DNA of 44,265 nucleotides from a virus (lineage: Duplodnaviria; Heunggongvirae; Uroviricota; Caudoviricetes): positions 1 to 44,265 of IMG/VR virus record IMGVR_UViG_2877973648_000002. The stretch is one strand, 5' to 3'. Below, one piece after another: positions 8,935 through 44,265 of the stretch. The notes beneath the pieces are model-generated. The model was not told the DNA's origin. It saw only the letters and a list, made by a program, of their open reading frames with translations, and did no database searches. The position numbers were made by a program, and so were the translations under genes. Numbering within the stretch: position 1 is the first letter of the stretch; each line of letters begins with the position of its first letter.

Positions 8935-10422
8935 GTGGACATTAGAGACTGGCTACCAGAATTTCAAGTTTCAGCAGAAACAGATCGGGACTTACAGACC
9001 TATTTTTTTAAGCTACCGGCGATAAAGGATATTATTGAAAGTAGGGCTTGGTTGGTTCTTGGAAGAAAAGGTACTGGTAAAACAGCCATTTATGAACACC
9101 TTAGAAGAGGAAAACCAGCCAATCTCAACGGGTTTTACTCAGTATGTCTAAATTTTAGTGACTATCCATGGCCAGCCCATCAACTTTACAAGGATGCAAT
9201 GGCTGGAGAACTTTCCGCTTATCAAAAAAGTTGGATGTATCTTTTTTATATTAAGGCATTATCTAAACTTATTGAAATAAAAAATGATGCTGGAGAGACT
9301 TTAAACAAAGATCTAACGTGGGCACATAATTATATCAAAACTATCTTTGGTAGTCCCGACCCAACTCTTAGGGAGGTTTTGTTTTCAAAAATAACCAGAT
9401 TAAAAACCATAAAAGGGCCCAGTGCTGGTCTTAATGAAGTATCATTGGACGCAGGTGAAATTTCGTTAGAGGAAGTTGCTGAGAATGCTCAGCTAAAGCA
9501 AAAGCTAAGAGCTAATGCTTTCACATTGCTTACGTATTTTGAAAAAATTTTTAAAGATAACATTGGTAATGAAAAAATAATTATCGCCCTTGACCAATTA
9601 GACGAAAACTGGCTAGAGGGGCAAATTGAAGAATATAGTAAGGTTTTAATAAATCTGCTAAATGTCTGTAGAAACATAGCATCTGATGAACGCCTCAATG
9701 ATAAATTAAAAGTCATTCCCTTCCTACGAACGGATATTTATCATTCTTTGAAATTCAATGATAAAAACAAATTATTGCAAGATAGTGCTATCATAATCTC
9801 ATGGAATGAAAATAATCTAAACGATATGTATTATGAGAGGATAAAGAAATACAAACCTAATGATCTCATATTAGATGACGAAAAGGACAGATCTGGGAAA
9901 GTATTTGAGGTTTCATTCGTTAGGCAGGGGACTCCTCCATTTAAATATATATGTCGCCGTTCTTTCTTTAGGCCTAGGGATATTATTGTCTACTTCAACA
10001 AAATTAGGGCATGTCATAAAAATAATGTCTCAGGTCTTTACACTTCCAATGAGCTTTATGAAGCTGACCGTGAAGCATCTATAAGTGTGTACAATGAGGT
10101 GATTGATGAATGGTCCAACCAATTCCCTGAAATTGAGAACTTACTAACTGTTCTTCAAACTATCCAAGTAGAAACATTCGATTTTAATGATTTTTCCGAG
10201 AAGTGCCGTAATGAATTTGCAGGTATTTCTGATGGGGTGATACGTCAATATATCAACTTCCTGTTTGATAACTCACTTATCGGACAAAAAAAACAAGGTA
10301 GATGGGAATACGTAAGTAGTTTGCCTAACTTAAAAATTAATCTACAAAATGAGTTTAGGACACATCATGCTTTAAAATACAGGTTGCATTTAATAGAAAG
10401 CAGACCGAGCCAAAATATTTAG
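8935..10422 (+). CDS. P-loop NTPase of unknown function (candidate anti-phage defence or abortive-infection gene)
   Basis: 495-aa ORF, GTG start after GAGGA; Walker A LVLGRKGTGKTA near residue 40; Walker B-like IIALDQLDE near residue 215; ~270-aa C-terminal region without recognisable motif; gene and flanks visibly A+T-rich relative to neighbours. Confidence 0.7.
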   Translation: MDIRDWLPEFQVSAETDRDLQTYFFKLPAIKDIIESRAWLVLGRKGTGKTAIYEHLRRGKPANLNGFYSVCLNFSDYPWPAHQLYKDAMAGELSAYQKSWMYLFYIKALSKLIEIKNDAGETLNKDLTWAHNYIKTIFGSPDPTLREVLFSKITRLKTIKGPSAGLNEVSLDAGEISLEEVAENAQLKQKLRANAFTLLTYFEKIFKDNIGNEKIIIALDQLDENWLEGQIEEYSKVLINLLNVCRNIASDERLNDKLKVIPFLRTDIYHSLKFNDKNKLLQDSAIIISWNENNLNDMYYERIKKYKPNDLILDDEKDRSGKVFEVSFVRQGTPPFKYICRRSFFRPRDIIVYFNKIRACHKNNVSGLYTSNELYEADREASISVYNEVIDEWSNQFPEIENLLTVLQTIQVETFDFNDFSEKCRNEFAGISDGVIRQYINFLFDNSLIGQKKQGRWEYVSSLPNLKINLQNEFRTHHALKYRLHLIESRPSQNI

Positions 10423-10694: not shown

Positions 10695-10781
10695 ATGAAG
10701 CAGCAAAAGGCGATGTTAATCGCCCTGATCGTCATCTGTTTAACCGTCATAGTGACGGCACTGGTAACGAGGAAAGACTGA
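10695..10781 (+). pseudogene. hokD: Hok-family type I toxin gene (HokD/RelF-like), truncated after codon 28 by IS3
   Basis: Translation MKQQKAMLIALIVICLTVIVTALVTRKD then TGA supplied by the first bases of IS3; matches recalled HokD/RelF N-terminus. Confidence 0.6.
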
Positions 10782-10808
10782 TCCTACCCACGTAATATGG
10801 ACACAGGC

Positions 10809-11675
10809 CTAAGCGAGGTTCTGGTTTTCAAATTGTTCCGGACTGAGGCCGCCACACCAACTGTGCCGCCGCCACCGATTGTAATCACATTCGATATAAT
10901 TAAATACCGTTGCCCGCATTATTTCCCGGCTGATAAAGTGTTCTCCATGGATACATTCCACTTTCAGCGAATGAAAGAAGCTTTCCACGCAGGCATTATC
11001 GTAGCAGCAACCTTTTGCGCTCATACTTCCACGCAGATTATGCCGCTTCAGTTGCGCCTGATAATCTGCTGAACAGTACTGGCCTCCACGGTCCGTGTGA
11101 ACGATAACGTTCCGGGGCCTCTTACGCCGCCACAGCGCCATCTGCAGGGCATCGCAGGCCAGTTGCGCCGTCATGCGTGGCGACATTGACCAGCCAATAA
11201 CGGCACGTGACCACAGGTCAATGACCACTGCCAGATACAGCCAGCCTTCATCTGTACGTAAGTACGTGATGTCTCCTGCCCACTTCTGGTTCGGGCCACT
11301 GGCGTAAAAATCCTGCTCCAACAGATTTTCTGACACAGGCAGGCCGTGTGCGCGGTAGCTGACCGGGCTGAACTTCCGGGAGGCCTTTGCCCTCAGTCCC
11401 TGACGGCGCAGGCTTGCCGCCACGGTTTTTACGTTAAAGGGGTAACCCTGAGCACGCAGTTCATCCGTCAGGCGTGGGGCACCGTAACGCTGTTTTGACC
11501 GGGTAAAAGCCGCGAGGACAACGCTGTCGCAGTGTTGGCGGAACTGCTGACGCGTGCTTATCCTTGTCCGCCGCTGACACCACGTATACCAGCCGCTGCG
11601 GGCCACCCGGAGCACGCGGCACATTGCTTTGATGCTGAACTCAGCCTGATGTTTTTCAATAAAGACATACTTCAT
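10809..11675 (-). CDS. insF: IS3 transposase OrfB (DDE integrase domain)
   Basis: 288-aa ORF matching recalled IS3 InsF ([32 protein letters not shown]...). Confidence 0.95.
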
Positions 11676-11971
11676 TTCAGGCGCTTCGCGAAGTATGTCG
11701 CGGCCTTTTGGAGGATAGCCAGCTCTTCATCCCGTTCTGCCAGCTGGCGTTTGAGACGTGCAATCTCGGTAGACATCTCCAGTTCACGTTCAGAAGACGT
11801 CTGCTGATTTTGCTGTTTACTGCGCCAGTTGTAGAGCTGTGATTCATACAGGCTGAGTTCACGGGCTGCGGCAGTAACACCGATGCGTTCAGCAAGCTTC
11901 AGGGCTTCACTGCGAAATTCAGGCGAATGCTGTTTACGGGGTTTTTTACTGGTTGATACTGTTTTTGTCAT
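11672..11971 (-). CDS. insE: IS3 transposase OrfA (HTH)
   Basis: [35 protein letters not shown]...; overlaps insF in ATGA fashion, consistent with the IS3 frameshift arrangement. Confidence 0.95.
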
Positions 11972-12036
11972 GTGAGTCACCTCTGACTGAGAGTTTACTC
12001 ACTTAGCCGCGTGTCCACTATTGCTGGGTAAGATCA

Positions 12037-12273
12037 CCTGCAATGACCCCGCTGATGCTGGACACATCCACCCGTAAGCTGGTTGCGTGGGATGGCACCA
12101 CCGACGGTGCTGCCGTTGGCATTCTTGCGGTTGCTGCTGACCAGACCAGCACCACACTGACGTTCTACAAGTCCGGCACGTTCCGTTATGAGGATGTGCT
12201 CTGGCCGGAGGCTGCCAGCGACGAGACGAAAAAACGGACCGCGTTTGCCGGAACGGCAATCAGCATCGTTTAA
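12037..12273 (+). pseudogene. D: Head decoration protein D, 3' fragment beginning at the IS3 junction
   Basis: Translation from the IS3 boundary [78 protein letters not shown] matches recalled C-terminus of lambda gpD. Confidence 0.85.
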
Positions 12274-12291
12274 CTTTACCCTTCATCACTA

Positions 12292-12317
12292 AAGGCCGCC
12301 TGTGCGGCTTTTTTTAC
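12292..12317 (+). terminator. Hairpin plus T-tract between D and E
   Basis: AGGCCGCctgtGCGGCT followed by TTTTTTT. Confidence 0.5.
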
Positions 12318-12328
12318 GGGATTTTTTT

Positions 12329-12604
12329 ATGTCGATGTACACAACCGCCCAGCTGCTGGCGGCAAATGAGCAGAAATTTAAGTTTGATCCGCTGTTTCTG
12401 CGTCTCTTTTTCCGTGAGAGCTATCCCTTCACTACGGAGAAAGTCTATCTCTCACAAATTCCGGGACTGGTAAACATGGCGCTGTACGTTTCGCCGATTG
12501 TTTCCGGTGAGGTTATCCGTTCCCGTGGCGGCTCCACCTCTGAATTTACGCCGGGATATGTCAAACCCAAGCACTTAGCATGGCTTTCTGAGGCTTTCGT
12601 GTAG
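12329..12604 (+). pseudogene. E: Major capsid protein E, 5' fragment interrupted by island insertion
   Basis: MSMYTTAQLLAANEQKFKFDPLFLRLFFRESYPF...GYVKPKH matches recalled lambda gpE N-terminus, then 9 unrelated codons (LAWLSEAFV) and stop. Confidence 0.85.
12564..12573. repeat. attL core (AACCCAAGCA) of the island, within E codons K-P-K-H
   Basis: Identical 10-mer at 23488-23497 at the other junction. Confidence 0.7.
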
Positions 12605-12736
12605 TTGCTGGTTTTTACACTTAATCTTTTGATAATAAAGAATAAGTTTATCTGGCGCTTTCACTGGATTTTCCTCGTTATCTGTGTGTTGCAATCATCT
12701 CTGTATTGCAGCTTGTATTGCTTTTTGGGGCTAAAA

Positions 12737-13972
12737 ATGGCTGGCGAGAACAAACTGAGCGACAAAGCACTTAAAGGATATCTGGGGAAACCCAGAGAAA
12801 AGCAGATCACCATTGCTGATGGAAAGGGGCTTTCTATTCGTGTGAGTACCAAGGGGGCTGTGAGCTTTGTTTTCTTCTACAGGTTAGCAGGTGGCCGGGC
12901 TGCTCCGGTCTGGCTAACGTTGGGTAAATATCCTGATATGTCACTCAAACAGGCAAGGGAAAAGCGCGACGAGTGCCGTGGTTGGTTGGCTGACAAACGT
13001 GATCCGCGTATCCAGATTAAGATTCAGGCTGAAGAACGCTTAAAGCCGGTCACAGTGGAGGATGCACTAAATTACTGGTATGAAAATTACTGTAAGGTGC
13101 GTCGTAAAACTCATGCTGTAACGCTTGGCAGATTTCGAAAGCATATCTTTCCCTATATCGGTCATTTGCCCGTAAATGACACTCACCTATATGAATGGCT
13201 GGACTGTTTTGACCGAATTAAACGTAATGCACCAGTTATGGCGGCGTATGTTTTTTCTGACACTAAATTAGCTCTTCGTTTTTGTCGGGTACGCCAGTAC
13301 GCGACGTGTGATGCTTTAAAGGATTTGCGCATGAGTGATGTGGGGCAGATTGCAGGTAAGCGGGATCGGGTTCTGGATGAAGCCGAACTGGGCCAGCTCT
13401 GGAAGGCAATTTTTGTCGAGCCTGATTTAAAACTAATGTCTGAATACACGCGAAAAATGTTTGTGCTTTGTACAGTATTTGGATGTCGAATGAGTGAAGC
13501 CCGATTATCTGAATGGAGCGAATGGGATCTCGAAAGTTGGGTTTGGACTGTACCAAAAGATCACTCAAAAACTGGTGTTGAAATCGTCAGACCAGTACCT
13601 GAAATTCTACGACAGTGGGTAACGGATGTTCACGAAGAGACAAAACATACTGGTTATGTGCTGGGAAGTCTGCGAATTAGAGAAAGCGTAAGCAAGATTG
13701 GGGGGAAAATCGGTAAACGTTTGGGCCATGAAAAACAATGGTCACTACACGACCTTAGAAGAACGCTATCTACTCATCTAAGTGATCTCGGTGTTGAATT
13801 TTATGTAGTAGAACAACTGTTAGGCCATGCGCTACCTGGCGTGGCAGGTGTTTACAACCGGAGTAAGTTTATGGCTAAAAAACTGGATGCTCTGGAACTC
13901 TGGACTACATATCTCAATAGCATCGCAGGTGCTGATTCAAAAGTGACAATCCTCAAACAAAAGGCTGGTTAA
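12737..13972 (+). CDS. int: P4-type tyrosine integrase of the island
   Basis: 411 aa from the ATG at 12737; catalytic-region motifs (HDLRRT, LGH, Y in GVYNRS); adjacent to attL; the upstream 44 codons of the ORF look non-coding. Confidence 0.85.
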   Translation: MAGENKLSDKALKGYLGKPREKQITIADGKGLSIRVSTKGAVSFVFFYRLAGGRAAPVWLTLGKYPDMSLKQAREKRDECRGWLADKRDPRIQIKIQAEERLKPVTVEDALNYWYENYCKVRRKTHAVTLGRFRKHIFPYIGHLPVNDTHLYEWLDCFDRIKRNAPVMAAYVFSDTKLALRFCRVRQYATCDALKDLRMSDVGQIAGKRDRVLDEAELGQLWKAIFVEPDLKLMSEYTRKMFVLCTVFGCRMSEARLSEWSEWDLESWVWTVPKDHSKTGVEIVRPVPEILRQWVTDVHEETKHTGYVLGSLRIRESVSKIGGKIGKRLGHEKQWSLHDLRRTLSTHLSDLGVEFYVVEQLLGHALPGVAGVYNRSKFMAKKLDALELWTTYLNSIAGADSKVTILKQKAG

Positions 13973-13973
13973 C

Positions 13974-14201
13974 ATGAAAAAAATGGCAATTGTTGATAAA
14001 AAGGGTCTGGAGTACATTCCTAACATCGATCGTATGATCCGTGAGAAAGAATGTCGGGAGCTAACCACTCTTGCAAACAGCACACGCTGGAAGCTGGAGA
14101 AGGAAGGAAAATTTCCTAAGCGGATCAAGATTGGTTCCACTGCTGTTGCATATCGTCTTTCAGAAGTGCAGGCATGGATTCGAGGTGAGTGGGTAGTTTA
14201 A
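13974..14201 (+). CDS. alpA: AlpA-family transcriptional regulator / excisionase-like protein
   Basis: 75-aa ORF starting 1 nt after the int stop; small HTH-like protein in the position AlpA/Vis occupies in P4-like and PICI elements. Confidence 0.65.
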   Translation: MKKMAIVDKKGLEYIPNIDRMIREKECRELTTLANSTRWKLEKEGKFPKRIKIGSTAVAYRLSEVQAWIRGEWVV

Positions 14202-14270
14202 ATTATCTCAGAATAAAATATTATGAATTACTGATTTGAGAATTTGTACTCAAATCAGTAATAACATTCT

Positions 14271-14807
14271 TTATAAGAGATTAAATCCAAATAAAGAGTA
14301 ATCATATACAGGGGTGCATTGCATCCCACTGAATATGCTGATGTTTTTTTCTGTTTCTATCCTTTTTTCAATAAGTTGTTGTATATTTTTACAGTACAAT
14401 TTGTGTGTGATGTTATTATCGTAAGCCTGATATAGCAACGTCAATGTTGACGCTAGGAAACATACAGATAAAATTAAAATAATATATGCAGTTTTTTTAT
14501 TTTTTGTCCATGATCTATTTGTTTGTGAAATATAAAGAATTCTGAGGTGGATAATGGTGAGAGACAATAGCAGGCCACTCAATAAAATAAGTATTGGGTT
14601 TGCGTATTTTATTAATGGTTGAGAGAAAAAAACTATTATAGCTCCTGTGACTGCGTATGAGAAAAAGGAGTGATTAAACTTCTTACTCCTTCTCTCAAGT
14701 ATTTTAATTTCATCTTGTGTGGGGGTTTTAGATGCCTCTAATATAAGTTTATTGAATGTTTCTGTTATCTTGTTTTTTGTGTTTGTGGCTATTTTTTTTA
14801 GATTCAT
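14271..14807 (-). CDS. Hypothetical integral membrane protein (A+T-rich cargo gene)
   Basis: 178-aa ORF with about three hydrophobic helices; strongly A+T-rich; convergent to int-alpA. Confidence 0.5.
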   Translation of the reverse strand: MNLKKIATNTKNKITETFNKLILEASKTPTQDEIKILERRSKKFNHSFFSYAVTGAIIVFFSQPLIKYANPILILLSGLLLSLTIIHLRILYISQTNRSWTKNKKTAYIILILSVCFLASTLTLLYQAYDNNITHKLYCKNIQQLIEKRIETEKNISIFSGMQCTPVYDYSLFGFNLL

Positions 14808-15157
14808 AGCATTCTAACTCCCTTAACTTATTTATTACTTTCTCTTTATGATAAGAGAGGGGAATGACTTGGTAAAGTGATTTGTCATTAATAATGATAA
14901 TCCTTGCGATAAATATTTCTGCAAGTTATTTATCTGTTTGTTGCTATCTTGTTAAGCGTTGGGTGTGGTTTATGTTTGGAGCGACTTTATTTAATCGTGA
15001 TTTTATGGATTTATATTTATATCCTGTAAGATAAGCGCATGTTAGTTCAGGAGTAGTGTCAGATAAAATTATTCGGAGTAGAACTACCTTTTCTGTTTAT
15101 TGCCAGTATTTACATAGCAATGCGCCGTAGTTACTCACATCACGGCGCTGATACTAA

Positions 15158-15460
15158 TTATTCAGATTCTTTGGCTTTACGCCGCTGGAGTTCTTCACGA
15201 GCGACGGCTACGAGTTGCCCGATTTCCTCCGCTGCCTTGATGCCGATTTGTTCGACCTTAGCTAAGGCATCCAGTGAAGACACGAGGGGATTTTCTCCGC
15301 TTCCTTCTGCCTGGCGGCGGGCGATCTCACCGCGCATGGCGGTTACTATGAATCCGGCGTTGCTTTCGCCGTCCAGTTTTACGGATTCCATGCCCTCCAT
15401 AACATCGTGGGGAACCCTGATCGTTGTCATTTGCGATTTTGCATTTTTGTATACAGACAT
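15158..15460 (-). CDS. Ribbon-helix-helix-type transcriptional regulator (probable island repressor)
   Basis: 100-aa ORF; segment MTTIRVPHDVMEGMESVKL consistent with an RHH beta-strand/helix; divergent from an operator-rich promoter region. Confidence 0.5.
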   Translation of the reverse strand: MSVYKNAKSQMTTIRVPHDVMEGMESVKLDGESNAGFIVTAMRGEIARRQAEGSGENPLVSSLDALAKVEQIGIKAAEEIGQLVAVAREELQRRKAKESE

Positions 15461-15480
15461 AGTTAATCACCAATTTGTTA

Positions 15481-15582
15481 TGTGTATATCACTATACACA
15501 AAAGTGAGATATAAAAACACTTGCAATGTATATCACCACAATATAATGTATATCTCACATTATGGTCGCTATGTATCTCACA
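15481..15582. promoter_or_regulatory. Operator array and promoter of the island
   Basis: Palindrome TGTGTATATCACTATACACA (15481-15500); repeated ATGTATATC/ATGTATCTC boxes; TTGCAA (15521-15526) and TATAAT (15542-15547). Confidence 0.5.
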
Positions 15583-15668
15583 ATGATCGATTCATAAAAA
15601 CGACGAAACCCGGCAGTGCGCGAACACTAACCGGGCTTCTAACCAAACCGTTAAACGAGGTAACGACT

Positions 15669-16034
15669 ATGGCTGGAACACAGCATACCCAAACTCACCC
15701 TAAATTTATATACATCTTTCTGGCGCTACATCGCGATCGCATAGCAGATGGAGCAACTACGGTACATGTAGCCGCTGACACGCTGGTTGATGCCCGCAAG
15801 ATGGTTAAGGAGATGGGCTATACTGCGGCTTTCTGGAAAGGGCGGGAAGAAAACACGCTGTTTATTCAGAAATGTGAAAACAATTTCATCTGGCGTTTTA
15901 TCGCCCTGAGTACGGCACAACCGCGCGTGATTACCATCGAGGCCACCAGCGAACAGGAAGCCCGCCAGCAATCCCCAACTGGCTGCGTGATGATATTCGC
16001 CGCCCGTATTCGTCAGGAGGTGTGCCATGAATGA
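15669..16034 (+). CDS. Hypothetical protein (first gene of island rightward operon)
   Basis: 121 aa from the ATG at 15669 with GAGG RBS; the annotated 304-aa ORF is over-extended across the operator region. Confidence 0.5.
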   Translation: MAGTQHTQTHPKFIYIFLALHRDRIADGATTVHVAADTLVDARKMVKEMGYTAAFWKGREENTLFIQKCENNFIWRFIALSTAQPRVITIEATSEQEARQQSPTGCVMIFAARIRQEVCHE

Positions 16035-16251
16035 TCTTTATTTTAAAGTGCTGACACATGCTGAAAACGCGCTCGTTTGTGGCAAAAATATGCGAGAAAT
16101 CTTATCAACCTGGCTTGATGGGACAACAAATGCGGAACACGATGAACGGGATGCTAATTTAGCTGGAGCGTTAATTACGTTACTTGATCCTGTCATCAAA
16201 GAGCTGGATGAAGCTATAAAAATACACGACCAGAGCTATACCGGAGAATAA
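16027..16251 (+). CDS. Hypothetical protein
   Basis: 74-aa ORF overlapping the previous stop; acidic. Confidence 0.45.
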   Translation: MNDLYFKVLTHAENALVCGKNMREILSTWLDGTTNAEHDERDANLAGALITLLDPVIKELDEAIKIHDQSYTGE

Positions 16252-16253
16252 AA

Positions 16254-16541
16254 ATGAAAAATAAATTTTCTGGCTTTATTGCCAGCGGTCAAACTCATTC
16301 AAAAATCAGCCTTGGGGATATTTTCAAAGATAGCTATGGCTATCGAGTAAAGATTATTTCGGTTGATGATCGCCGTGTCTCTTATTTGCGTGATGGTTAT
16401 GATTTTGAATGTGTTATGCCGCGTCAGCAGTTCGAAAGAGATTTCATTCTGGTAAAAAATTGCAAGACAGATAATCAGAGGCGTGCCGCAGGCTATATCC
16501 GCAAAATTCGGGCAATGTTAGTTGCCGGAGGTAACAAATGA
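16254..16541 (+). CDS. Hypothetical protein
   Basis: 95-aa ORF tightly packed between neighbours. Confidence 0.45.
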   Translation: MKNKFSGFIASGQTHSKISLGDIFKDSYGYRVKIISVDDRRVSYLRDGYDFECVMPRQQFERDFILVKNCKTDNQRRAAGYIRKIRAMLVAGGNK

Positions 16542-18358
16542 AACGTGCTCCGAACTTAAAATACCAACCGCGCGACAAAATGACAGAAGTCATCATTTTT
16601 GCTGGCAGTGATGCCTGGAGCCATGCAAAAGAATGGAATGAATGGGCGGGTAAGCATATTGCAGCAGATGATACACCACCAGTAATTCTGGGTACGGAAC
16701 AACTGGAAAACCTGGATGATATGCAAATTATCGATGAAGGCCGTCATTATGTGCGTGTTTATCGTGCCGGAAAGATCGCAGAGAAAAATCTGACGAAGGT
16801 TGCGACATTACTTGCTATTGCAGGCGTAAAGGAAGCACGTTGTTACCGTAGCTTTGTTGATCGAGAGCCTGAAGACTGGACTCCGCGCCTTGTCGGCCTA
16901 AAAGCTGAAGCGGAGCATGGGGAAAGTCTGGTGATTGAACTGCCAGTGAAGAAGGCAGAGCGCAAAAATGACGAGCGTGCTTCATCTTTGGCGTTGAATC
17001 AGATGGGGGCCAGCCAGCGCGGTGAAGTTCTCCTGGCACATTACGGCGGCGAACTGGCAATCAATGCCGACTCTGACACCGTTCATCATTACAACGGCGT
17101 TGTATGGGAGCCGGTTCAGGATAAAGAGTTACAGCGTGCTATGGCGCAGATTTTCATTGATGCGGAGATCAGCTATTCGCAGAACGCCATTAAATCGGCG
17201 GTAGATACCATGAAGTTAAGTTTGCCTGTAATGGGGAATACAGCCCGTAACCTGATTGGATTCAGTAACGGGGTATTTGATACCAGAACAGGTAATTTTC
17301 GGGAGCATAACAAAAACGACTGGTTGTTAATTGCCAGTGAATTACCTTTCAGCCCACCAGCAGAGGGGGAAACGCTGGCAACACATGCGCCGAATTTCTG
17401 GAAGTGGTTGCGCCGTTCGGTGGCTGAGAATGACCGCAAGGCAGATCGCGTACTGGCGGCATTATTCATGGTGCTGGCGAACCGGTACGACTGGCAGTTA
17501 TTCATTGAGGTAACAGGGCCGGGGGGAAGTGGTAAAAGCGTGATGGCGGAGATTTGCACCATGCTGGCGGGTAAGGCTAATACAGTATCAGCAAGCATGA
17601 AGGCGCTGGAAGATGCAAGGGAACGTGCGTTAGTGGTTGGCTTTTCGCTGATTATCATGCCGGATATGACCCGCTACGCTGGTGATGGGGCAGGGATTAA
17701 GGCCATTACAGGCGGTGACAAGGTGGCAATTGACCCGAAACACAAAGCCCCCTATTCAACGCGTATTCCGGCAGTAGTGCTGGCGGTTAACAATAACGCC
17801 ATGTCATTCAGTGACCGCAGCGGGGGGATCTCACGTCGTCGGGTGATATTCAATTTTTCGGAAGTTGTACCGGAGAACGAACGCGATTCGATGCTGGCGG
17901 AAAAAATAGAAGGTGAGCTGGCGGTAGTGATTCGTCATCTGCTTACACGGTTTGCTGATCAGGACGAAGCCAGACGCCTGTTATATGAGCAGCAGAAATC
18001 TGAAGAAGCACTGGCGATAAAGCGAGAGGGGGATTCGCTGGTGGACTTCTGCGGCTATCTCATGGCATCGGTAATGTGTGATGGCCTGTTAGTGGGTAAT
18101 GCTGAAATTGTGCCATTCAGCCCACGCAGGTATCTCTATCATGCCTATCTGGCTTATATGAGGGCACATGGGTTTGGTAAACCTGTAACACTGACGCGCT
18201 TCGGTAAAGATATGCCGGGGGCAATGGCGGAATATGGCAGGGAGTATATGAAACGGAAAACGAAGCACGGTTTGCGTTCAAACGTGACACTGACGGAGGA
18301 ATCAGAAGACTGGATGCCATCATGTGTATCGGTCACTAATGACGATAGCAAAAATTAA
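16538..18358 (+). CDS. Primase/helicase-type replication protein (D5/P4-alpha-like SF3 NTPase)
   Basis: 606-aa ORF; Walker A VTGPGGSGKS; Walker B-like LIIMPDMT; overall resemblance to phage/plasmid primase C-terminal helicase domains; followed by iterons. Confidence 0.75.
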   Translation: MKRAPNLKYQPRDKMTEVIIFAGSDAWSHAKEWNEWAGKHIAADDTPPVILGTEQLENLDDMQIIDEGRHYVRVYRAGKIAEKNLTKVATLLAIAGVKEARCYRSFVDREPEDWTPRLVGLKAEAEHGESLVIELPVKKAERKNDERASSLALNQMGASQRGEVLLAHYGGELAINADSDTVHHYNGVVWEPVQDKELQRAMAQIFIDAEISYSQNAIKSAVDTMKLSLPVMGNTARNLIGFSNGVFDTRTGNFREHNKNDWLLIASELPFSPPAEGETLATHAPNFWKWLRRSVAENDRKADRVLAALFMVLANRYDWQLFIEVTGPGGSGKSVMAEICTMLAGKANTVSASMKALEDARERALVVGFSLIIMPDMTRYAGDGAGIKAITGGDKVAIDPKHKAPYSTRIPAVVLAVNNNAMSFSDRSGGISRRRVIFNFSEVVPENERDSMLAEKIEGELAVVIRHLLTRFADQDEARRLLYEQQKSEEALAIKREGDSLVDFCGYLMASVMCDGLLVGNAEIVPFSPRRYLYHAYLAYMRAHGFGKPVTLTRFGKDMPGAMAEYGREYMKRKTKHGLRSNVTLTEESEDWMPSCVSVTNDDSKN

Positions 18359-18364
18359 ACTTAT

Positions 18365-18601
18365 GGAATAACTGTTCACCACTGTTCACCCTGTCATAAA
18401 TATCTTTTATATCAGTATATTATAGGGTGAACAGTTATTTATGAACTGTTCACCAAACTATTCACTGTTCACCTTTTTGATTGTTTATTGAGCTTCAAGG
18501 GTGAACAGTGGTGAACAGTTGGTGAATAGTTTTTGTGAAACTGTTCACCCATTAACATTATGAATTAAAAGAGAAAATATCAAAAGGTGAACAGGTGAAG
18601 G
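18365..18601. repeat. Iteron cluster / putative replication origin of the island
   Basis: About 10 copies of CTGTTCACC / GGTGAACAG in both orientations, including tandem pairs, flanking an A+T-rich spacer. Confidence 0.7.
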
Positions 18602-18645
18602 GTTAAAACGCAAAAATTTTAATTTACTGCTGTGAGATAAAGCCT

Positions 18646-18891
18646 ATGACAGCGAAGCACACAAAAAAATCACAATCGCACGCCCTTGATTTGACGGAAC
18701 ACTGGTTAAGGGTGTCGATAAAAATCATCGACCGCAACGCCGGGGAAGGATACGCGAAAGCACATCCCGAACTGATTAGCGCATTCATGACAACGGCGGC
18801 TGCAAACTTTGCCACTCTGACCGAACGGGAGATTGCTGAAGCGGAGGAAGTGACAACAATCAATATTAAGTCCGGAGAGCAGGCAGCATGA
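18646..18891 (+). CDS. Hypothetical protein
   Basis: 81-aa ORF overlapping the start of the SSB-like gene. Confidence 0.4.
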   Translation: MTAKHTKKSQSHALDLTEHWLRVSIKIIDRNAGEGYAKAHPELISAFMTTAAANFATLTEREIAEAEEVTTINIKSGEQAA

Positions 18892-19337
18892 CGGCGCAAA
18901 TATCAGTTTACGGGCGGTTGGTGGACGACCCGCAGACAAAACAGACCAGCAAGGGCACCCCCATGACGCTGGCGCGTATGGCGGTATCACTGCCCTGCAG
19001 TCAGTCGGATGACGGTCAGGCGACGATGTGGTTATCTGTCCTGGCGTTTGGCAGACAAGCCGACGCGCTGGCAAAGCATCACAAAGGCGAACTCCTGAGC
19101 GTGGCGGGTAACATGCAGATGAGCCAGTGGACTGGACAGAACGGCGAAACGCGGCAGGGCTGGCAGGTTATCGCAGACAGCGTAATCAGTGCGCGATCGG
19201 TGCGACCGGGCGGCAATAAAGGCCAACAGGGGCAGGCTACTGACGCACTGAACAGAGCAAAACAACAGGCAGATCAGCAAGGAAGCCAGCCACCAGTGGG
19301 AGATAATGAGCAATGGGGAGATGATATCCCGTTTTAA
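18888..19337 (+). CDS. ssb: Single-stranded DNA-binding protein (SSB-like)
   Basis: 149-aa ORF with OB-fold-like N-terminus, Gly/Gln-rich linker and C-terminal acidic tail ending DDIPF as in bacterial SSB. Confidence 0.7.
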   Translation: MTAQISVYGRLVDDPQTKQTSKGTPMTLARMAVSLPCSQSDDGQATMWLSVLAFGRQADALAKHHKGELLSVAGNMQMSQWTGQNGETRQGWQVIADSVISARSVRPGGNKGQQGQATDALNRAKQQADQQGSQPPVGDNEQWGDDIPF

Positions 19338-19355
19338 ATATTGCCAATAAAAAAA

Positions 19356-19380
19356 GGCCGGAAAAAATAAATTTTCCGGC
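19356..19380. terminator. Hairpin after ssb
   Basis: GGCCGGAAAA...TTTTCCGGC stem; A-tract upstream, so U-tract on the minus strand; no T-tract downstream on the plus strand. Confidence 0.35.
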
Positions 19381-19554
19381 ATGCTACATAAATCCCGACC
19401 AAAGGGAGTGAAGATATTAACACTAATTTTCCGCACTGAAGTTGTCACCCCAAAACTTTATACAACATTGCACTCGGTTGCATGTATTCGCATGACAAAT
19501 ATCGGTGATAGCATATATCCACAATTATTTTTAATGAATGCAAAGAGGATGCGT

Positions 19555-20595
19555 ATGGTTGATTTATATTCGCCTACTCAGCTTGTACAGGTGGTTAATG
19601 CTGTAGATGTACAAAAACAACTAAATGCGTTGTTTACCAGTTTGTTTTTTACTCGCTCGGTAATGTTTGAATCGCGCGATATTATTCTTGATACAATCGA
19701 CGATCCAAATATCCCAATTGCAGCGTTTTGTTCTCCTATGGTGGGTAGTAAAGTTTCACGTGACGAAGGGTACGAATCAAAAACAATTCGTCCAGGCTAT
19801 ATGAAGCCGAAAAGCAGCATTGATCCAAATAAGTTAGCTGTGCGCCCTGCTGGTGTATCACCTGAGCAATACAATGCTTTTGGGGCGCGTAATATTAAAG
19901 TTAAACAGGCGATTGTAAATCAAGCTAAAGCTATTCGTGCACGTATTGAATGGCTTGCTGTTCAGGCAATCACAACGGGGAAAAATATCATTGAGGGCGA
20001 TGGTATTGAACGTTATGAGCTGGACTGGAATATTAAACCACAAAATATCATCACTCAGTCTGGCGGTGCTGAGTGGTCAGGTAAGGATAAAGAAACTTTT
20101 GATCCAAATGATGATATTGAGAGCTACGCAGAATTTAGTGAGGGCGTCACTAATATTATCATTATGGGCGGTAATGTATGGAAGAAATACCGTTCATTCA
20201 GAGCGATAAAAGAGGCTCTGGATACCCGTCGTGGTTCTAATTCCGAACTGGAAACGGCCCTTAAAGACCTTGGTGATTCGGTGAGTTTTAAAGGGTATAT
20301 GGGCGATGTTGCGATTGTTGTTTACAGCGGGCGTTATACCGACGAGGACGGAACAGAAAAACATTTCCTTGATCCTGATTTGATGGTGCTTGGCAATACG
20401 GCTCTTCAGGGGATTGTCGCCTATGGCGGTATTCAGGATCCGGAGCTAATCCGAATGGGGCTGACTAAAGCCGAACTTGCACCGAAAAACTATATTGTGC
20501 CTGGTGATCCGGCTATTGAATATGTGCAGACACATTCAGCACCACAGCCAATACCGGCCCGCATCAATCGTTTTGTTACCGTTCGCATTGGCTAA
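19555..20595 (+). CDS. Major capsid protein, diverged lambda gpE homologue
   Basis: 347 aa from the ATG at 19555 (AGAGG RBS); alignable by eye along its length to lambda gpE (e.g. GYMKPKSSIDP vs GYVKPKHEVNP; RRGSNSELETALKDLG...GDVAIVVYSG nearly identical). Confidence 0.8.
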   Translation: MVDLYSPTQLVQVVNAVDVQKQLNALFTSLFFTRSVMFESRDIILDTIDDPNIPIAAFCSPMVGSKVSRDEGYESKTIRPGYMKPKSSIDPNKLAVRPAGVSPEQYNAFGARNIKVKQAIVNQAKAIRARIEWLAVQAITTGKNIIEGDGIERYELDWNIKPQNIITQSGGAEWSGKDKETFDPNDDIESYAEFSEGVTNIIIMGGNVWKKYRSFRAIKEALDTRRGSNSELETALKDLGDSVSFKGYMGDVAIVVYSGRYTDEDGTEKHFLDPDLMVLGNTALQGIVAYGGIQDPELIRMGLTKAELAPKNYIVPGDPAIEYVQTHSAPQPIPARINRFVTVRIG

Positions 20596-20604
20596 GGGGG
20601 AGCA

Positions 20605-20946
20605 ATGGCTACTCATTACACTGAACTCATGGCTGGCACTGAAGCACTGGTGACTACGCTGGGGATATTTTCAGCTAATAAAGGGGTAATTCCTGCATTT
20701 ACGCCACTGATGCAGGAAGATGCAACAGGTGCACTGGTAGTATGGGATGGTTCGAGCGTAGGTAAAGCGGTTTATGTTTCCGCTGTACAAATCGACACCG
20801 CGAAAAAAACACAGGCTCAGGTCTATAAGACAGGTGTCTTAAATGTTGATGCTCTGAACTGGCCTGAGTCTGTTAAAGAACTGTCAGTAAAGGTTGCAGC
20901 GTTTGTTGGCTCAGGTATTTCTGTTCAGCCGCTGGCTCGTGTGTAA
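20605..20946 (+). CDS. Head decoration protein, lambda gpD homologue
   Basis: 113-aa ORF; VVWDGSSVGKAVYVSA and C-terminal region parallel gpD ([18 protein letters not shown]). Confidence 0.7.
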   Translation: MATHYTELMAGTEALVTTLGIFSANKGVIPAFTPLMQEDATGALVVWDGSSVGKAVYVSAVQIDTAKKTQAQVYKTGVLNVDALNWPESVKELSVKVAAFVGSGISVQPLARV

Positions 20947-20957
20947 AGGGGGATACA

Positions 20958-21341
20958 ATGCAGAATGATTACAATGACCTTAAGCCAATTGCCGAAATGA
21001 TGTACCCGAATCAAGCTGTAGAGGAATTAAAAGCTATCGCTGACAAAATGTGTTTAAGCGAGCGCCTTGTTGATATGAATCAGGTGATGGAAATTACAAC
21101 CCTGAGTCGTCGTACACTGCTAAACCTTGAGGCTAGTGGAGAGTTCCCGGAGCGTGTGCAGGTTACGGAAGGGCGTAAGGCCTGGTATTTAAGTGAAGTG
21201 ATCGACTGGATAAATAATATTCCTCGCGCTTCTGAATATTGCCGCGTACCTGTCCCAAAAAAGCCAGATGCGGCGCTATGCCTCAAGATTGAGCGTGTAC
21301 GCCGCAATGCACGGGATGGTCGCTATAAGCTGATTGGTTGA
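20958..21341 (+). CDS. AlpA-like HTH protein (second copy)
   Basis: 127-aa ORF; central segment MNQVMEITTLSRRTLLNLEASGEFPERVQVTEGRKAWYLSEVIDWI resembles the AlpA/phage-regulator HTH. Confidence 0.5.
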   Translation: MQNDYNDLKPIAEMMYPNQAVEELKAIADKMCLSERLVDMNQVMEITTLSRRTLLNLEASGEFPERVQVTEGRKAWYLSEVIDWINNIPRASEYCRVPVPKKPDAALCLKIERVRRNARDGRYKLIG

Positions 21342-21583
21342 TGAAATTAGGGCCCGCTCTGGCTGGCGGGTCCTTTCCGGCGATCCAGAACGTTACGGGG
21401 CGTCAGGCGCGCAGATTCTTGCTATTTATGACAATTTTCTGCGATTTGCCGTTTCTGTTCTTCTTCGTTGTAACTATATGTTATTAATGGAAATGCCACC
21501 TAAAAAGAAAGGAAATGGTAAGCGCTATTTTGAGCTAAAAACAGCTTAACCGTTTCCTTTCTCCAAAATTTACTGAGGCGGCT

Positions 21584-22009
21584 ATGAATCCATGCGCAGA
21601 AGTCATGACAACTATCAAACTAAGCGGATCTTTAGCTTCTTTGTTCGCCAGAGAACATCAGCGCCTTATCGGTCCGACGCGTGAGGCATTAAGGGTATTA
21701 TCAGCCACTATTCCGGGATTTGAGAAATTCATGAACACTAGCAAGGCTTGAGGACTCACTTTCGCCGTGTTTGTGGATAAAAATAATGTCGCGCAGGATG
21801 ATCTCGATTTTCCAAATGGTGGTCGTACGATTCGAATTGTTCCGATCATTATGGGGAGTAAGCGTGCTGGTGTTCTGCAAACCATTCTTGGCGCTTTCTT
21901 GGTGGTTGGTGGTGTTCTGGGGGCAACGATAGGGCAAGCATGGAGCGGTGGTGTGTGGAGCGGCAAGTATTTTCTATTGGCAGAAGCCCATTCCGCCAAG
22001 ATAGGCTAG
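21584..22009 (+). pseudogene. Tail assembly protein I-like gene, interrupted by stop/frameshift
   Basis: 21584-21751 encodes MNPCAEVMTTIKLSGSLASLFAREHQRLIGPTREALRVLSATIPGF... (parallels the lambda gpI N-terminus) then stop; homology resumes in another frame at 21767-22009 (TIRIVPIIMGSKRAGVLQTILGAFLVVGG). Confidence 0.45.
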
Positions 22010-22104
22010 ACGTATAAGATCGGTTACAATCTATAAATCAGCTGTTGAATTATTGAATTTTAACCATATTTATCAGATGGACTTCATTCAAAAAGGTAAC
22101 TTTG

Positions 22105-22791
22105 ATGGCCGGACAATTAGACGAAGCAGCAAAACAGATTTTGGGTACCTTACTGGCAGATTTTACAGATCGAGGGTTAACTGCACAGGATTTAAAAAAT
22201 GGTTATGAAGGCCCGAACATCAATGCGCTAGCTACTGCAGTATGCAACGTCGCTGATTTTACATCTGTAGATTTTGAAGTTGCCTTTGGCGATCTCGAAA
22301 AAAGCAAACTAATCAAAACTGGCCCCATGAAAATGTTCGATAATGATCACAATAGCTCTGTGATCATTATTGCTTCTTATAGCCTACGTGAATATGTTTA
22401 TTTGACGGAGGCTGGATACAAGGAGTCCAGGAAAGTACCAAATCGCCCACAACGTGTTCAGCGTATAGTCAATAATCTAACGATCACCGGCGGACATTTC
22501 AGCAATACGCAATTAGGGCAGGGAGAGGTCGTTTCCCAAACCCAAAACATCACAAGCAGTTCCGATTCTGAAATAGTTGCTAAGCTGATTTCTATCATTG
22601 AAGAACAGGGGCAAGTAGTTAACAGCGATCAACGTTCTGATATTGAAGCAGCTGTGGCAGCCGCTAATGAAGGTGATGGTAAAGAAGCGAAATCATTGCT
22701 GTCTAAAGTATGCGGTCCTGTTTGGGAGTCTGTGCAACCAGTAATATGGCCGATCATTGGTGAGTTGGTTAAGAAAGGGCTCGGGATTTAA
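22105..22791 (+). CDS. Hypothetical protein (island cargo)
   Basis: 228 aa from the ATG at 22105 with AAGG RBS; no recognisable motif; A+T-rich. Confidence 0.5.
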   Translation: MAGQLDEAAKQILGTLLADFTDRGLTAQDLKNGYEGPNINALATAVCNVADFTSVDFEVAFGDLEKSKLIKTGPMKMFDNDHNSSVIIIASYSLREYVYLTEAGYKESRKVPNRPQRVQRIVNNLTITGGHFSNTQLGQGEVVSQTQNITSSSDSEIVAKLISIIEEQGQVVNSDQRSDIEAAVAAANEGDGKEAKSLLSKVCGPVWESVQPVIWPIIGELVKKGLGI

Positions 22792-22983
22792 TTTAATAAA
22801 TTCTAAAAGGGCTGTTTGGGTAGTATTTTTATGGGGCTCTTCAATTAAAAGGAGTCATAGGGTCAAACGATGTGCCTATGACTCCTGGATAAAGCCATCA
22901 GAGAATATTAGTGTTAACAATTTCTCTTCAGCCCTTGTTTATACGATGCCAGCTTCAGAACCGAATCAACGCTCATGCGATCT

Positions 22984-23271
22984 TTAGCATCTCGGTAATG
23001 ACAGTAAGTTATTATTCCATCGACCATCAGCATAAGTACGTATAAATTTCCGCCCTCCCCCTCCTGGATCAACGACACCTACATCAGCACGTTTGCCATA
23101 ACTATCAGTGACATAGAAAGTATGTAACTTGTTCTCAATTGAATTAACTACATCTGCCACAGTCCACTTACTTCCAGGGGGATTAAATTGAGGGCTTCCC
23201 ACATGAGTAATGTGTTCATGAAGGGCGTTCGAACTGGAGAGAGTAATACAAGTTAATCGTACATCAACCAT
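22984..23271 (-). CDS. Hypothetical small protein (island cargo)
   Basis: 95 aa from the ATG at 23271 with AAGGAG RBS; glycine-rich loop DPGGGGRK; convergent with the 228-aa gene. Confidence 0.45.
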   Translation of the reverse strand: MVDVRLTCITLSSSNALHEHITHVGSPQFNPPGSKWTVADVVNSIENKLHTFYVTDSYGKRADVGVVDPGGGGRKFIRTYADGRWNNNLLSLPRC

Positions 23272-23487
23272 CTTCAACTCCTTATTTACTGTGAAAAATC
23301 ATAAGATACAGCATGTATCGAAATACAGCAGGGTGAACAATTTCGATTTACGAGGACTTAGCAAAGTCTCTTTCTCTTAAACTGAGGGCTTGTATTGCAG
23401 GTTGTATTGCAACTGTAGCTAAGCAATATCAGTTGTAAGCTTTATTTCTTTTACAGTCAATCGTATAGCATCGTATTTGACTCATGT

Positions 23488-23497
23488 AACCCAAGCA
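23488..23497. repeat. attR core (AACCCAAGCA) of the island
   Basis: Identical to 12564-12573; E coding sequence continues immediately after. Confidence 0.7.
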
Positions 23498-24278
23498 TGA
23501 GGTGAATCCGCAGATGACCCTGCGTCGCCTGCCGGATGAAGATCCGCAGAATCTGGCGGACCCGGCTTACCGCCGCCGTCGCATCATCATGCAGAACATG
23601 CGTGACGAAGAGCTGGCCATTGCTCAGGTCGAAGAGATGCAGGCAGTTTCTGCCGTGCTCAAGGGCAAATACACCATGACCGGTGAAGCCTTCGATCCGG
23701 TTGAGGTGGATATGGGCCGCAGTGCGGCGAACAACATCACACAGTCCGGCGTCACGGAGTGGAGCAAGCGTGACAAGTCCACGTATGACCCGACCGACGA
23801 TATCGAAGCCTACGCGCTGAACGCCAGCGGTGTGGTGAATATCATCGTGTTTGACCCGAAAGGCTGGGCGCTGTTCCGTTCCTTCAAAGCCGTCAGGGAG
23901 AAGCTGGATACCCGTCGCGGCTCTCATTCCGAGCTGGAGACAGCGGTGAAAGACCTGGGCAAAGCGGTGTCCTATAAGGGAATGTATGGCGATGTGGCCA
24001 TCGTCGTGTATTCCGGACAGTACGTGGAAAACGGCGTCAAAAAGAACTTCCTGCCGGACAACACGATGGTGCTGGGGAACACTCAGGCTCGCGGTCTGCG
24101 CACCTATGGCTGCATTCAGGATGCGGATGCATTGAGTGAGGGTATTAATGCGTCTCCCCGTTATCCGAAAAACTGGAAGACATCCGGCGATCCGGCGCGA
24201 GAGTTCACCATGATTCAGTCAGCACCGCTGATGCTGCTGGCTGATCCTGATGAGTTCGTGTCCGTTCAACTGGCGTAA
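23490..24278 (+). pseudogene. E: Major capsid protein E, 3' fragment
   Basis: From the attR repeat the frame reads PKHEVNPQMTLRRLPDEDPQNLADPAYRRRRIIMQNMRDEELAIAQVEEMQ... to ...ADPDEFVSVQLA, matching recalled lambda gpE residues ~80-341; a stop lies immediately upstream in frame. Confidence 0.85.
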
Positions 24279-42981: not shown

Positions 42982-44265
42982 ATGGATTTCCAGTTATATT
43001 CGCTCGGCGCAGCGTTAGTGTTTCATGAAATATTTTTTCCTGAATCATCAACGGCAATGGCGTTAATTCTGGCAATGGGAACCTACGGTGCAGGTTATGT
43101 GGCGCGTATTGTCGGAGCATTTATTTTCGGCAAAATGGGCGACAGAATAGGGCGTAAAAAAGTGCTCTTTATTACCATCACCATGATGGGGATCTGTACC
43201 ACCTTAATTGGTGTGTTACCGACCTATGCACAGATTGGTGTTTTTGCACCCATCTTGCTGGTGACGTTGCGTATTATTCAGGGGTTGGGTGCAGGTGCGG
43301 AAATTTCCGGTGCCGGTACGATGCTGGCGGAATATGCGCCAAAAGGTAAGCGCGGAATTATCTCCTCATTTGTGGCTATGGGAACTAACTGCGGAACCTT
43401 GAGCGCAACGGCAATCTGGGCCTTTATGTTCTTCATTCTCAGTAAAGAGGAACTGCTGGCGTGGGGATGGCGTATACCGTTCCTGGCGAGCGTTGTCGTG
43501 ATGGTCTTTGCTATCTGGTTGCGTATGAATCTGAAAGAAAGCCCGGTCTTTGAGAAGGTTAACGACAGTAACCAACCGACAGCAAAACCTGCACCTGCTG
43601 GTAGCATGTTCCAGAGCAAATCCTTCTGGCTGGCAACAGGGCTGCGTTTTGGTCAGGCGGGTAACTCCGGGTTAATTCAGACTTTCCTTGCAGGCTATTT
43701 AGTGCAGACGTTATTGTTTAACAAAGCAATTCCAACAGATGCATTGATGATCAGTTCGATTCTCGGCTTTATGACCATTCCGTTCCTTGGTTGGTTATCC
43801 GATAAAATTGGTCGCCGGATCCCGTATATTATTATGAATACCTCCGCGATTGTGCTGGCATGGCCAATGCTTTCTATCATTGTAGATAAAAGCTATGCCC
43901 CGAGCACCATTATGGTTGCACTGATTGTGATTCATAACTGTGCGGTGCTGGGATTATTTGCTCTGGAAAACATTACCATGGCAGAAATGTTCGGCTGTAA
44001 AAACCGCTTTACCCGGATGGCTATTTCTAAAGAAATTGGTGGTCTTATCGCTTCCGGTTTTGGTCCTATCCTGGCGGGTATTTTCTGCACCATGACGGAA
44101 TCCTGGTATCCGATCGCCATTATGATCATGGCATATTCAGTGATTGGTTTAATCTCTGCGCTGAAAATGCCAGAGGTGAAAGACCGTGATTTAAGTGCGC
44201 TGGAAGACGCTGCGGAAGATCAACCGCGTGTTGTAAGAGCTGCGCAACCTTCCAGAAGTCTGTAA
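42982..44265 (+). pseudogene. ydfJ: MFS (metabolite:H+ symporter-type) transporter gene, 3' portion lacking the first transmembrane helix; probable prophage insertion target
   Basis: ORF begins within the first conserved MFS segment (...FFPESS...GAFIFGKMGDRIGRKK), in-frame stop two codons upstream; runs to the window end; Qin disrupts ydfJ in K-12 by recollection. Confidence 0.6.

Follow-up and report, generated by a model that had tools for sequence, protein, structure and literature searches.

Helper-embedded phage-inducible chromosomal islands (HE-PICIs) were described by Tommasini, Mageeney & Williams (2023, NAR Genom Bioinform 5:lqad036, PMC10111431), whose prototype, Eco567.11capE, is an 11-kb PICI-like island in E. 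coli NRG857c that lies inside a lambda-type major capsid gene E and points the same way. The prototype has a 10-bp identity block and a capsid gene of its own; 201 instances are counted at the E site, and the supplement lists the identity block 'aacccaagca' for Eco567.11.E_Phage_cap_E_80. After mitomycin C, the helper–satellite composite excises and replicates and the satellite then excises precisely, restoring E, as documented by quantitative PCR and deep sequencing. The four published HE-PICI zones are, in order, Integration (int, AlpA), Bro/regulatory, Replication (primase, single-stranded DNA-binding protein (SSB), replication origin (ori)) and Late (captured late genes), and the attP centre has a doubled TGTATTGC motif on either side, 81 ± 2 bp upstream and 132 ± 2 bp downstream (PMC10111431). 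Here we analyse IMG/VR record IMGVR_UViG_2877973648_000002, positions 1–44,265 (the whole 44,265-nt stretch, hereafter the window), in which a lambda-type E is interrupted at 12573/23498 by an insert of 10,924 bp (12574–23497). We are highly confident that this insert is an HE-PICI of the published E:Phage_cap_E:80 group and a near-identical relative of Eco567.11capE.

The junctions in E and the integration zone of the island consist of the following features.

12329–12573, plus strand: 5′ fragment of helper gene E (codons 1–82), ending ...GYVKPKH; RefSeq annotation, partial major capsid protein
12564–12573, plus strand: attL core, identity block AACCCAAGCA, the same block as in the PMC10111431 supplement
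12700–12721, plus strand: doubled TGTATTGC motif (presumed arm-type site); first base 132 bp downstream of the core centre
12737–13972, plus strand: 411-aa tyrosine integrase; arm-binding domain of P4 type (Pfam Arm-DNA-bind_3, Phage_int_SAM_3, Phage_integrase)
13974–14201, plus strand: AlpA, of the excisionase/transcriptional regulator family (Pfam Phage_AlpA, E = 2.8e-15)
23389–23411, plus strand: doubled TGTATTGC motif, ending ~81 bp upstream of the core centre
23488–23497, plus strand: attR core, identity block AACCCAAGCA, with text identical to the attR of Eco4801.11 in the PMC10111431 supplement
23498–24278, plus strand: 3′ part of helper E, beginning at the third position of codon 82 and ending at the normal stop

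The 5′ fragment of E reads on into foreign sequence and reaches a stop at 12604, and the E frame picks up again at the second 10-mer (23488–23497) and runs to 24278. Joining 12329–12573 to 23498–24278 gives 1,026 nt in frame (341 codons plus stop), equal in length to the intact E of phage PhiR63_1, from which it differs by 12 nt and 2 aa with no indel at the joint. The block AACCCAAGCA has exactly two copies in the window, starting at 12564 and 23488, where 0.14 matches are expected by chance, and is single-copy in intact E at nt 236–245 (codons 79–82). Empty sites are abundant. Of the 81 phage records matching the query, 80 align to the two E flanks as two pieces, and in the 29 of these that are listed the flanks span 575–577 contiguous bp, the expectation for two flanks plus one copy of the 10-mer being 577 bp; E is also uninterrupted in >3,000 of 5,426 complete E. 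coli genomes. In >3,000 E. coli genomes, homology to the left flank breaks off precisely with the final base of the 10-mer (window 12573). Homology to the right flank begins at, or ≤4 nt from, that 10-mer. The GC content of the insert is 32–52%, compared with 53–59% in flanking E, and the island is co-oriented with the helper late operon, its core genes all lying on the plus strand as do helper E, FI, FII and the tail genes. The insert is a site-specific, tyrosine-integrase insertion into E at a 10-bp core in codons 79–82, and excision at the cores would recreate E exactly. A preliminary description, made from the sequence without database searches, had proposed that E is cleanly split, that one 10-mer stands at both junctions and that an integrase inserted a satellite-type island whose precise excision would restore the gene. 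All of this holds, and the two outcomes that could have undone the proposal, namely E fragments that fail to join and an absence of intact-E sites in related genomes, are answered for the insertion by the seamless join and the abundance of empty sites.

Comparison with Eco567.11capE places the element within the described group. The integrase is identical at 410 of 411 aa to that of NRG857c 11capE, which establishes clade membership without the need for a tree, and 12300–15785 and 15853–21517, ~9.2 kb altogether, are 98.7% and 98.9% identical, respectively. The target codon in E, the AACCCAAGCA block and the attL/attR alignments agree, with no replacement sequence in attP, and both islands share the order int-alpA / regulator / primase-ori-SSB / E′-D′-cos. 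Set against the published zones, the order here is int-alpA, YlcI/YnfO plus Icd-like, primase-ori-SSB and E′-D′-cos-gpI fragment. The doubled motifs (here TGTATTGCAGnTTGTATTGC, co-oriented, at 12702–12721 and 23391–23410) lie ~81.5 and ~131.5 bp from the core centre, matching the spacing in the HE-PICI prototype. Both att cores are perfect and int and alpA are intact, so the prerequisites for excision are present in the sequence. The two islands differ in the cargo of their final ~2 kb (here a gpI-like pseudogene, a protein of 228 aa and a DUF3892 protein, versus DUF262 + HEPN in the prototype), in ~70 bp of the Icd-like gene, and in the helper (at the ydfJ (Qin) site with an IS3-associated truncation here versus a full prophage at icd). 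Eco4801.11, from the PMC10111431 data set, has the exact right end of the window. The satellite-like gene set of the preliminary description (int, AlpA, a regulator with operators, primase/helicase, iterons and SSB) is present as described. Its suggestion that the arrangement was undescribed does not survive, having been pre-empted in 2023 by the HE-PICI paper, with the same 10-bp block, site and excision (PMC10111431); the window element is a member of a described group, effectively a published variant, and not a new arrangement.

Site fidelity is very high. Among the 5,426 complete E. coli genomes, the integrase gene (counted at ≥80% coverage) is present in 175 and the E-island attL junction in 173, which indicates high site specificity. 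The cargo variant of the window occurs in 16 of these genomes, all 16 within the island, and its attR junction in 15. The same island variant, 99.7–99.8% identical and with an identical Int, is found in E of prophages in GF131 and AST215, which adjoin appY/ompT, the DLP12 position in K-12. These helpers keep a complete Q-lysis-terminase-portal-protease-D region. Helper loci differ among copies: the prototype helper is at the icd site, the window helper at the ydfJ site and the GF131/AST215 helpers next to appY/ompT. As a separate observation, NC_011750.1 (E. coli IAI39) carries at 534166–544707 an island without the first 324 nt of int and without the attL junction, and has just two capsid-gene annotations; this is either a truncated or an off-target copy.

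The helper prophage in the window is degraded. The window covers the whole prophage, from the integrase (20–1315) to a ydfJ fragment (42982–44265), and one insertion sequence lies between the helper early region and the head genes.

10781–12038, minus strand: IS3, 1,258 bp, with a hokD fragment on one side and codon ~34 of helper gene D on the other; ends read directly

An inverted-repeat search for the IS3 ends returned nothing at the chosen threshold, and the ends were read directly instead. The flanks are gac and cct, and a 3-bp target duplication is absent. Q, lysis genes, cos, Nu1, A, W, B and C were neither annotated nor found between the early region and D, and D also lacks its 5′ part. 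A junction of this kind without target duplication is the signature of an IS-associated deletion. Because Q, terminase, portal and protease are lost, a restored E would not let this prophage build heads, and because helper Q is lost, late read-through into the island cannot come from this helper. The preliminary description had argued that the host phage can build capsids only after the island leaves; that fails here, since the helper is without terminase, portal and protease regardless of the state of E. Elsewhere in the prophage, a 32–37% GC patch of the early region (8935–10422) encodes a 495-aa P-loop ATPase, annotated as Sll1717 family, whose weak PADLOC match (E = 4e-5) is to PDC-M28C, a candidate system protein; this may be a defence gene carried by the prophage.

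The late zone of the island contains features absent from the preliminary description, namely E′, D′ and cos, followed by a cargo segment.

19555–20595, plus strand: island major capsid protein E′, 346 aa (Pfam Phage_cap_E, E = 1.4e-41)
20605–20946, plus strand: island head decoration protein D′, 113 aa (Pfam HDPD, E = 4.5e-15)
20958–21341, plus strand: second AlpA-like winged-helix protein, 127 aa, just upstream of cos (Pfam Phage_AlpA; phrog_2790)
21366–21575, plus strand: cos site with a cosQ-side block, cosN core and R3/R2/R1-like cosB elements, from alignments
21584–22009, plus strand: gpI-like tail assembly gene carrying a single in-frame stop; opens the variable cargo slot (phrog_32 and phrog_4946 match both halves)
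22105–22791, plus strand: cargo gene for a 228-aa protein (phrog_28570)
22984–23271, minus strand: cargo gene for a DUF3892 protein, 95 aa, convergent with the 228-aa gene

E′ is 41% identical to helper-type E, and its closest match among 50,697 phage records is at most 42% identical; D′, a lambda-D-type protein, is 38% identical to phage D. At ≥80% coverage, the E′-D′ pair is present in ~395 E. coli genomes, the majority with a nucleotide identity of ≥95%. These genomes are more than double those with the island integrase (175), so E′-D′ must also sit in other islands, and E′/D′ form a satellite-specific lineage of their own. The two proteins complicate a simple capsid-lock reading of the insertion as first proposed, since the island encodes E′ and a capsid-protein homologue is thus available before excision. 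The 127-aa AlpA-like protein has the AlpA-family structure 8c3t as its best PDB match, and a PDB sequence search (E ≤ 1) with this protein, the other island open reading frames (ORFs) not being so searched, gave no match to Rpp. The cos site was aligned with those of lambda, of the helpers in NRG857c (50icd) and GF131, and of the prototype island. A search with the lambda cosN 12-mer allowing ≤2 mismatches gave chance-level matches only, and the island cos was located via flank homology. Its cosN core is GGGCGTCAGGCG at 21398–21409, which departs at 5 of its 12 positions from the GGGCGGCGACCT shared by lambda and the helpers of NRG857c and GF131, and which stays the same in island copies with different flanking cos sequence. 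The cosQ-side block is conserved, and the R3, R2 and R1-like cosB elements are likewise kept amid diverged surroundings. In an exact search of IMG/VR, a 21-mer with the variant cosN core lay directly downstream of the 127-aa AlpA-like gene in 36 of 36 contigs and beside a phage terminase in none.

A private cosN core, an island-only 21-mer and divergent E′/D′ together point to a possible satellite-specific packaging identity. It is unlikely, but not fanciful, that the capE HE-PICI family has a packaging identity of its own that is independent of Rpp. If it had, the satellite could tell its own DNA from helper DNA by its changed cohesive ends, by a shell that is in part its own product, or by the two together, a mechanism not described for PICIs. 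The cosN core, the cosB elements without an adjacent Rpp and the E′/D′ lineage are details not reported in PMC10111431, and they could guide packaging experiments on such elements.

The cargo segment is ≥99.9% identical across all 16 genomes carrying it. The single in-frame stop of the gpI-like gene falls after codon 55, and the 228-aa protein has no PDB, Pfam or PADLOC match; PADLOC applied to the cargo and to the other uncharacterised ORFs gave no match inside the island. In other copies this position at the right end is taken by TIR, DUF262+HEPN, Abi or DUF2971 (+ terS) genes, which makes the pair of 228-aa and DUF3892 genes a candidate for an uncharacterised defence or accessory module.

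The remaining features of the island belong to the regulatory and replication zones.

14271–14807, minus strand: 178-aa predicted membrane protein in a ~32% GC patch
15158–15460, minus strand: YlcI/YnfO-family small regulator (NCBIfam YlcI_YnfO_N, E = 8.5e-20; phrog_6522)
15483–15581, no strand assigned: ~5 operator-like repeats (A)TGTATATC(T)CAC between the divergent genes, one of the repeats in inverted orientation; read from sequence
15669–16034, plus strand: Icd-like protein, first gene of the rightward operon (NCBIfam phage_ICD_like, E = 2.8e-23)
16027–16541, plus strand: two small genes, encoding phrog_2196 (74 aa) and DUF4222 (95 aa) proteins
16538–18358, plus strand: primase/helicase (D5_N, DUF5906, Pox_D5; P4-family primase C-terminal region)
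18372–18594, no strand assigned: replication origin with nine GGTGAACAG iterons on both strands
18646–19337, plus strand: 81-aa phrog_1231 protein and SSB (149 aa)

The 178-aa membrane protein has no significant Pfam, PHROG, PADLOC or NCBIfam family. The YlcI/YnfO-family regulator, for which the preliminary description put forward a ribbon-helix-helix fold, whose gene faces the operator-like repeats and whose product has no PDB sequence match, is a candidate island repressor; the Icd-like protein also matches PHROG 'transcriptional repressor' families. The origin has 9 copies of GGTGAACAG, with 0.37 expected in the whole window. The match of the primase to TIGR01613 is 95.1 bits, under the curated cut-off of 108.7. 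Further observations concern the Icd-like gene and its surroundings. A ~70-bp segment at its start (15785–15853) gives no alignment to prototype 11capE, and the gene is annotated as 366 nt here versus 291 nt in NRG857c and as a partial pseudogene in GF131. Immediately upstream of the gene, a GC-rich hairpin is overlapped by a sub-threshold match to the SymR antitoxin RNA at 15602–15674 (minus strand; 33.6 bits, gathering threshold 61, E = 0.003). Across 12000–24000, Rfam returned only this symR match and a spurious miRNA match.

These features suggest a life cycle for the island in a competent helper. Q-dependent late transcription would read from the head genes into int-alpA, timing excision late, and the YlcI/YnfO-type regulator with its operators would control the rightward Icd-primase operon. 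The D5-type primase/helicase, iteron origin and SSB could then amplify the island circle autonomously, and helper terminase would package island DNA via the lambda-like cos, probably as multimers in phage-sized heads or in shells with E′/D′. In a new cell, Int would target E of a resident lambdoid prophage. Such an element is a parasite of a virus placed inside the capsid gene of that virus, where excision would gate capsid production and where the island is replicated, and probably transcribed, passively with its helper.

Several points weigh against this reading of the insert as a working HE-PICI satellite. Virions were not recovered by the authors of PMC10111431, and helper-dependent packaging or transfer has never been shown for the family; the 'satellite' status of the element derives from gene content and from analogy with EcCICFT073, the model Gram-negative PICI. 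With cosN differing at 5 of 12 positions, cutting by a lambda-type terminase is assumed. No Bro-N domain protein was detected in the regulatory zone with Pfam, and no C4/isrK-type RNA, a class of immunity RNA reported in some HE-PICIs (PMC10111431), was found in 12000–24000 with Rfam (E ≤ 1; P4 CI/C4/isrK sought). A consensus promoter/terminator scan of the island gave the same counts as shuffled sequence and neither supports nor excludes read-through. Finally, the resident helper can supply neither read-through activation nor packaging.

Four other readings were weighed against, or alongside, the identification as an HE-PICI. One takes the segment for an uninterrupted stretch of ordinary phage sequence, a moron block or an artefact of assembly, with no insertion at all. 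The 10-mer alone is short, and two copies also arise in 2 of 100 window shuffles, but the rejoined E is seamless, empty sites number in the thousands, identical attL junctions are shared by 173 independent complete genomes and excision has been published (PMC10111431); this reading is barely credible and was rejected. Another assigns the element to the P4-like satellites or to the capsid-forming PICIs (cf-PICIs) and not to the classical PICI type, for which one can cite the P4-type integrase arm domain, the P4-family primase C-terminal region and the island's own major capsid and decoration genes. Searches of all island ORFs with Pfam and PHROG found no member of the psu, sid, delta or epsilon families and no portal, protease, head-tail connector or terminase gene, the only head-gene homologues being those of Phage_cap_E and HDPD. 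With the TIGR01613 primase match also below its curated cut-off, such an assignment is very improbable.

The other two readings concern the role of the island and leave its HE-PICI identity in place. The island could be mainly a prophage lock and carrier of defence genes, kept for those functions and not for satellite spread. The TIR, DUF262+HEPN, Abi and DUF2971 genes in the right-end slot of other copies speak for this, as do the loss of E until excision, the reduced helper yield suggested by the authors in their discussion and the failure to recover virions (PMC10111431). The cargo of the window copy has no PADLOC match, however, while cos, origin, primase, capsid and decoration genes, which serve mobility, are kept under apparent conservation and this variant is present in prophages that lie at different places in the chromosome. 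We consider a mainly lock-and-defence role decidedly unlikely. The last reading refines the HE-PICI identification for this copy and is probable: the island is structurally intact but not now mobilisable, a passenger or an element kept for its cargo, and its insertion has no present effect on capsid production. The IS3 that joins hokD to D, with Q, lysis genes, Nu1, A, W, B and C gone, favours this, as does the remark by the authors that many HE-PICI helpers look truncated and that such islands are potentially abandoned (PMC10111431). Against it stand island ORFs that are all intact relative to the prototype, perfect att cores, cos R elements conserved amid diverged sequence and, elsewhere, near-identical copies in helpers that look complete; help in trans could also come from incoming phages or from further lambdoid prophages of the genome. 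To move, this copy would need a superinfecting or co-resident lambdoid helper. The modest addition of the window to the published HE-PICI group is thus an instance of a structurally intact island that is probably stranded in a helper gutted by an IS3-associated deletion.

Among other satellites, the island can be compared with the Gram-negative PICIs. It is 10.9 kb long, within the ~10–15 kb of these elements, and has int, alpA and a primase with an adjacent ori, as is characteristic of that group, it has no lysis genes, and its sole tail-related sequence is the gpI-like gene with the internal stop. The model Gram-negative PICI, EcCICFT073 (Fillol-Salom et al. 2018 ISME J, PMC6092414; 2019 Mol Cell, PMC6739421), is similar in size (~11 kb) and in its int-alpA-primase arrangement, encodes capsid and head-decoration homologues (c1499/c1500) and likewise lacks terS. 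Both have cos-type packaging by lambdoid helpers, in the island as predicted from its cos sequence. Deleting the capsid and decoration homologues of EcCICFT073 left interference unrelieved, and that PICI is packaged in phage-sized heads (PMC6092414). The two differ in location, EcCICFT073 being at a chromosomal site and the island in a phage gene, and in packaging: Rpp of EcCICFT073 retargets helper TerS to a PICI-specific, non-lambda cosB (PMC6739421), whereas the island has no Rpp homologue beside cos by sequence, keeps lambda-type R elements and has an altered cosN.

The island resembles satellite phage P4 in its P4-type arm-binding integrase, its P4/D5-type primase/helicase and a presumed dependence on helper structural genes. 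Unlike P4, it has E-like and D-like genes and a lambda-type cos, its helper is lambdoid and not P2-like, and it integrates in a phage gene, where P4 uses a tRNA gene. According to the cf-PICI preprint (10.1101/2022.09.08.507074), cf-PICIs encode every protein required for their own capsids, and the island shares with them the carriage of its own major capsid gene. Besides the major capsid protein, a cf-PICI would have a full module of portal, protease/scaffold, head-tail connectors and terminase small subunit; the island has just the capsid and decoration homologues. Regulated gene integrity elements, such as the prophage-like elements that interrupt sigK (PMC3442830), offer a parallel of another kind, in that a split gene is restored by timed precise excision. 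In the sigK case the gene belongs to the cell, whereas here it belongs to another mobile element, the prophage, and the timing would benefit the satellite rather than the cell, as discussed in PMC10111431.

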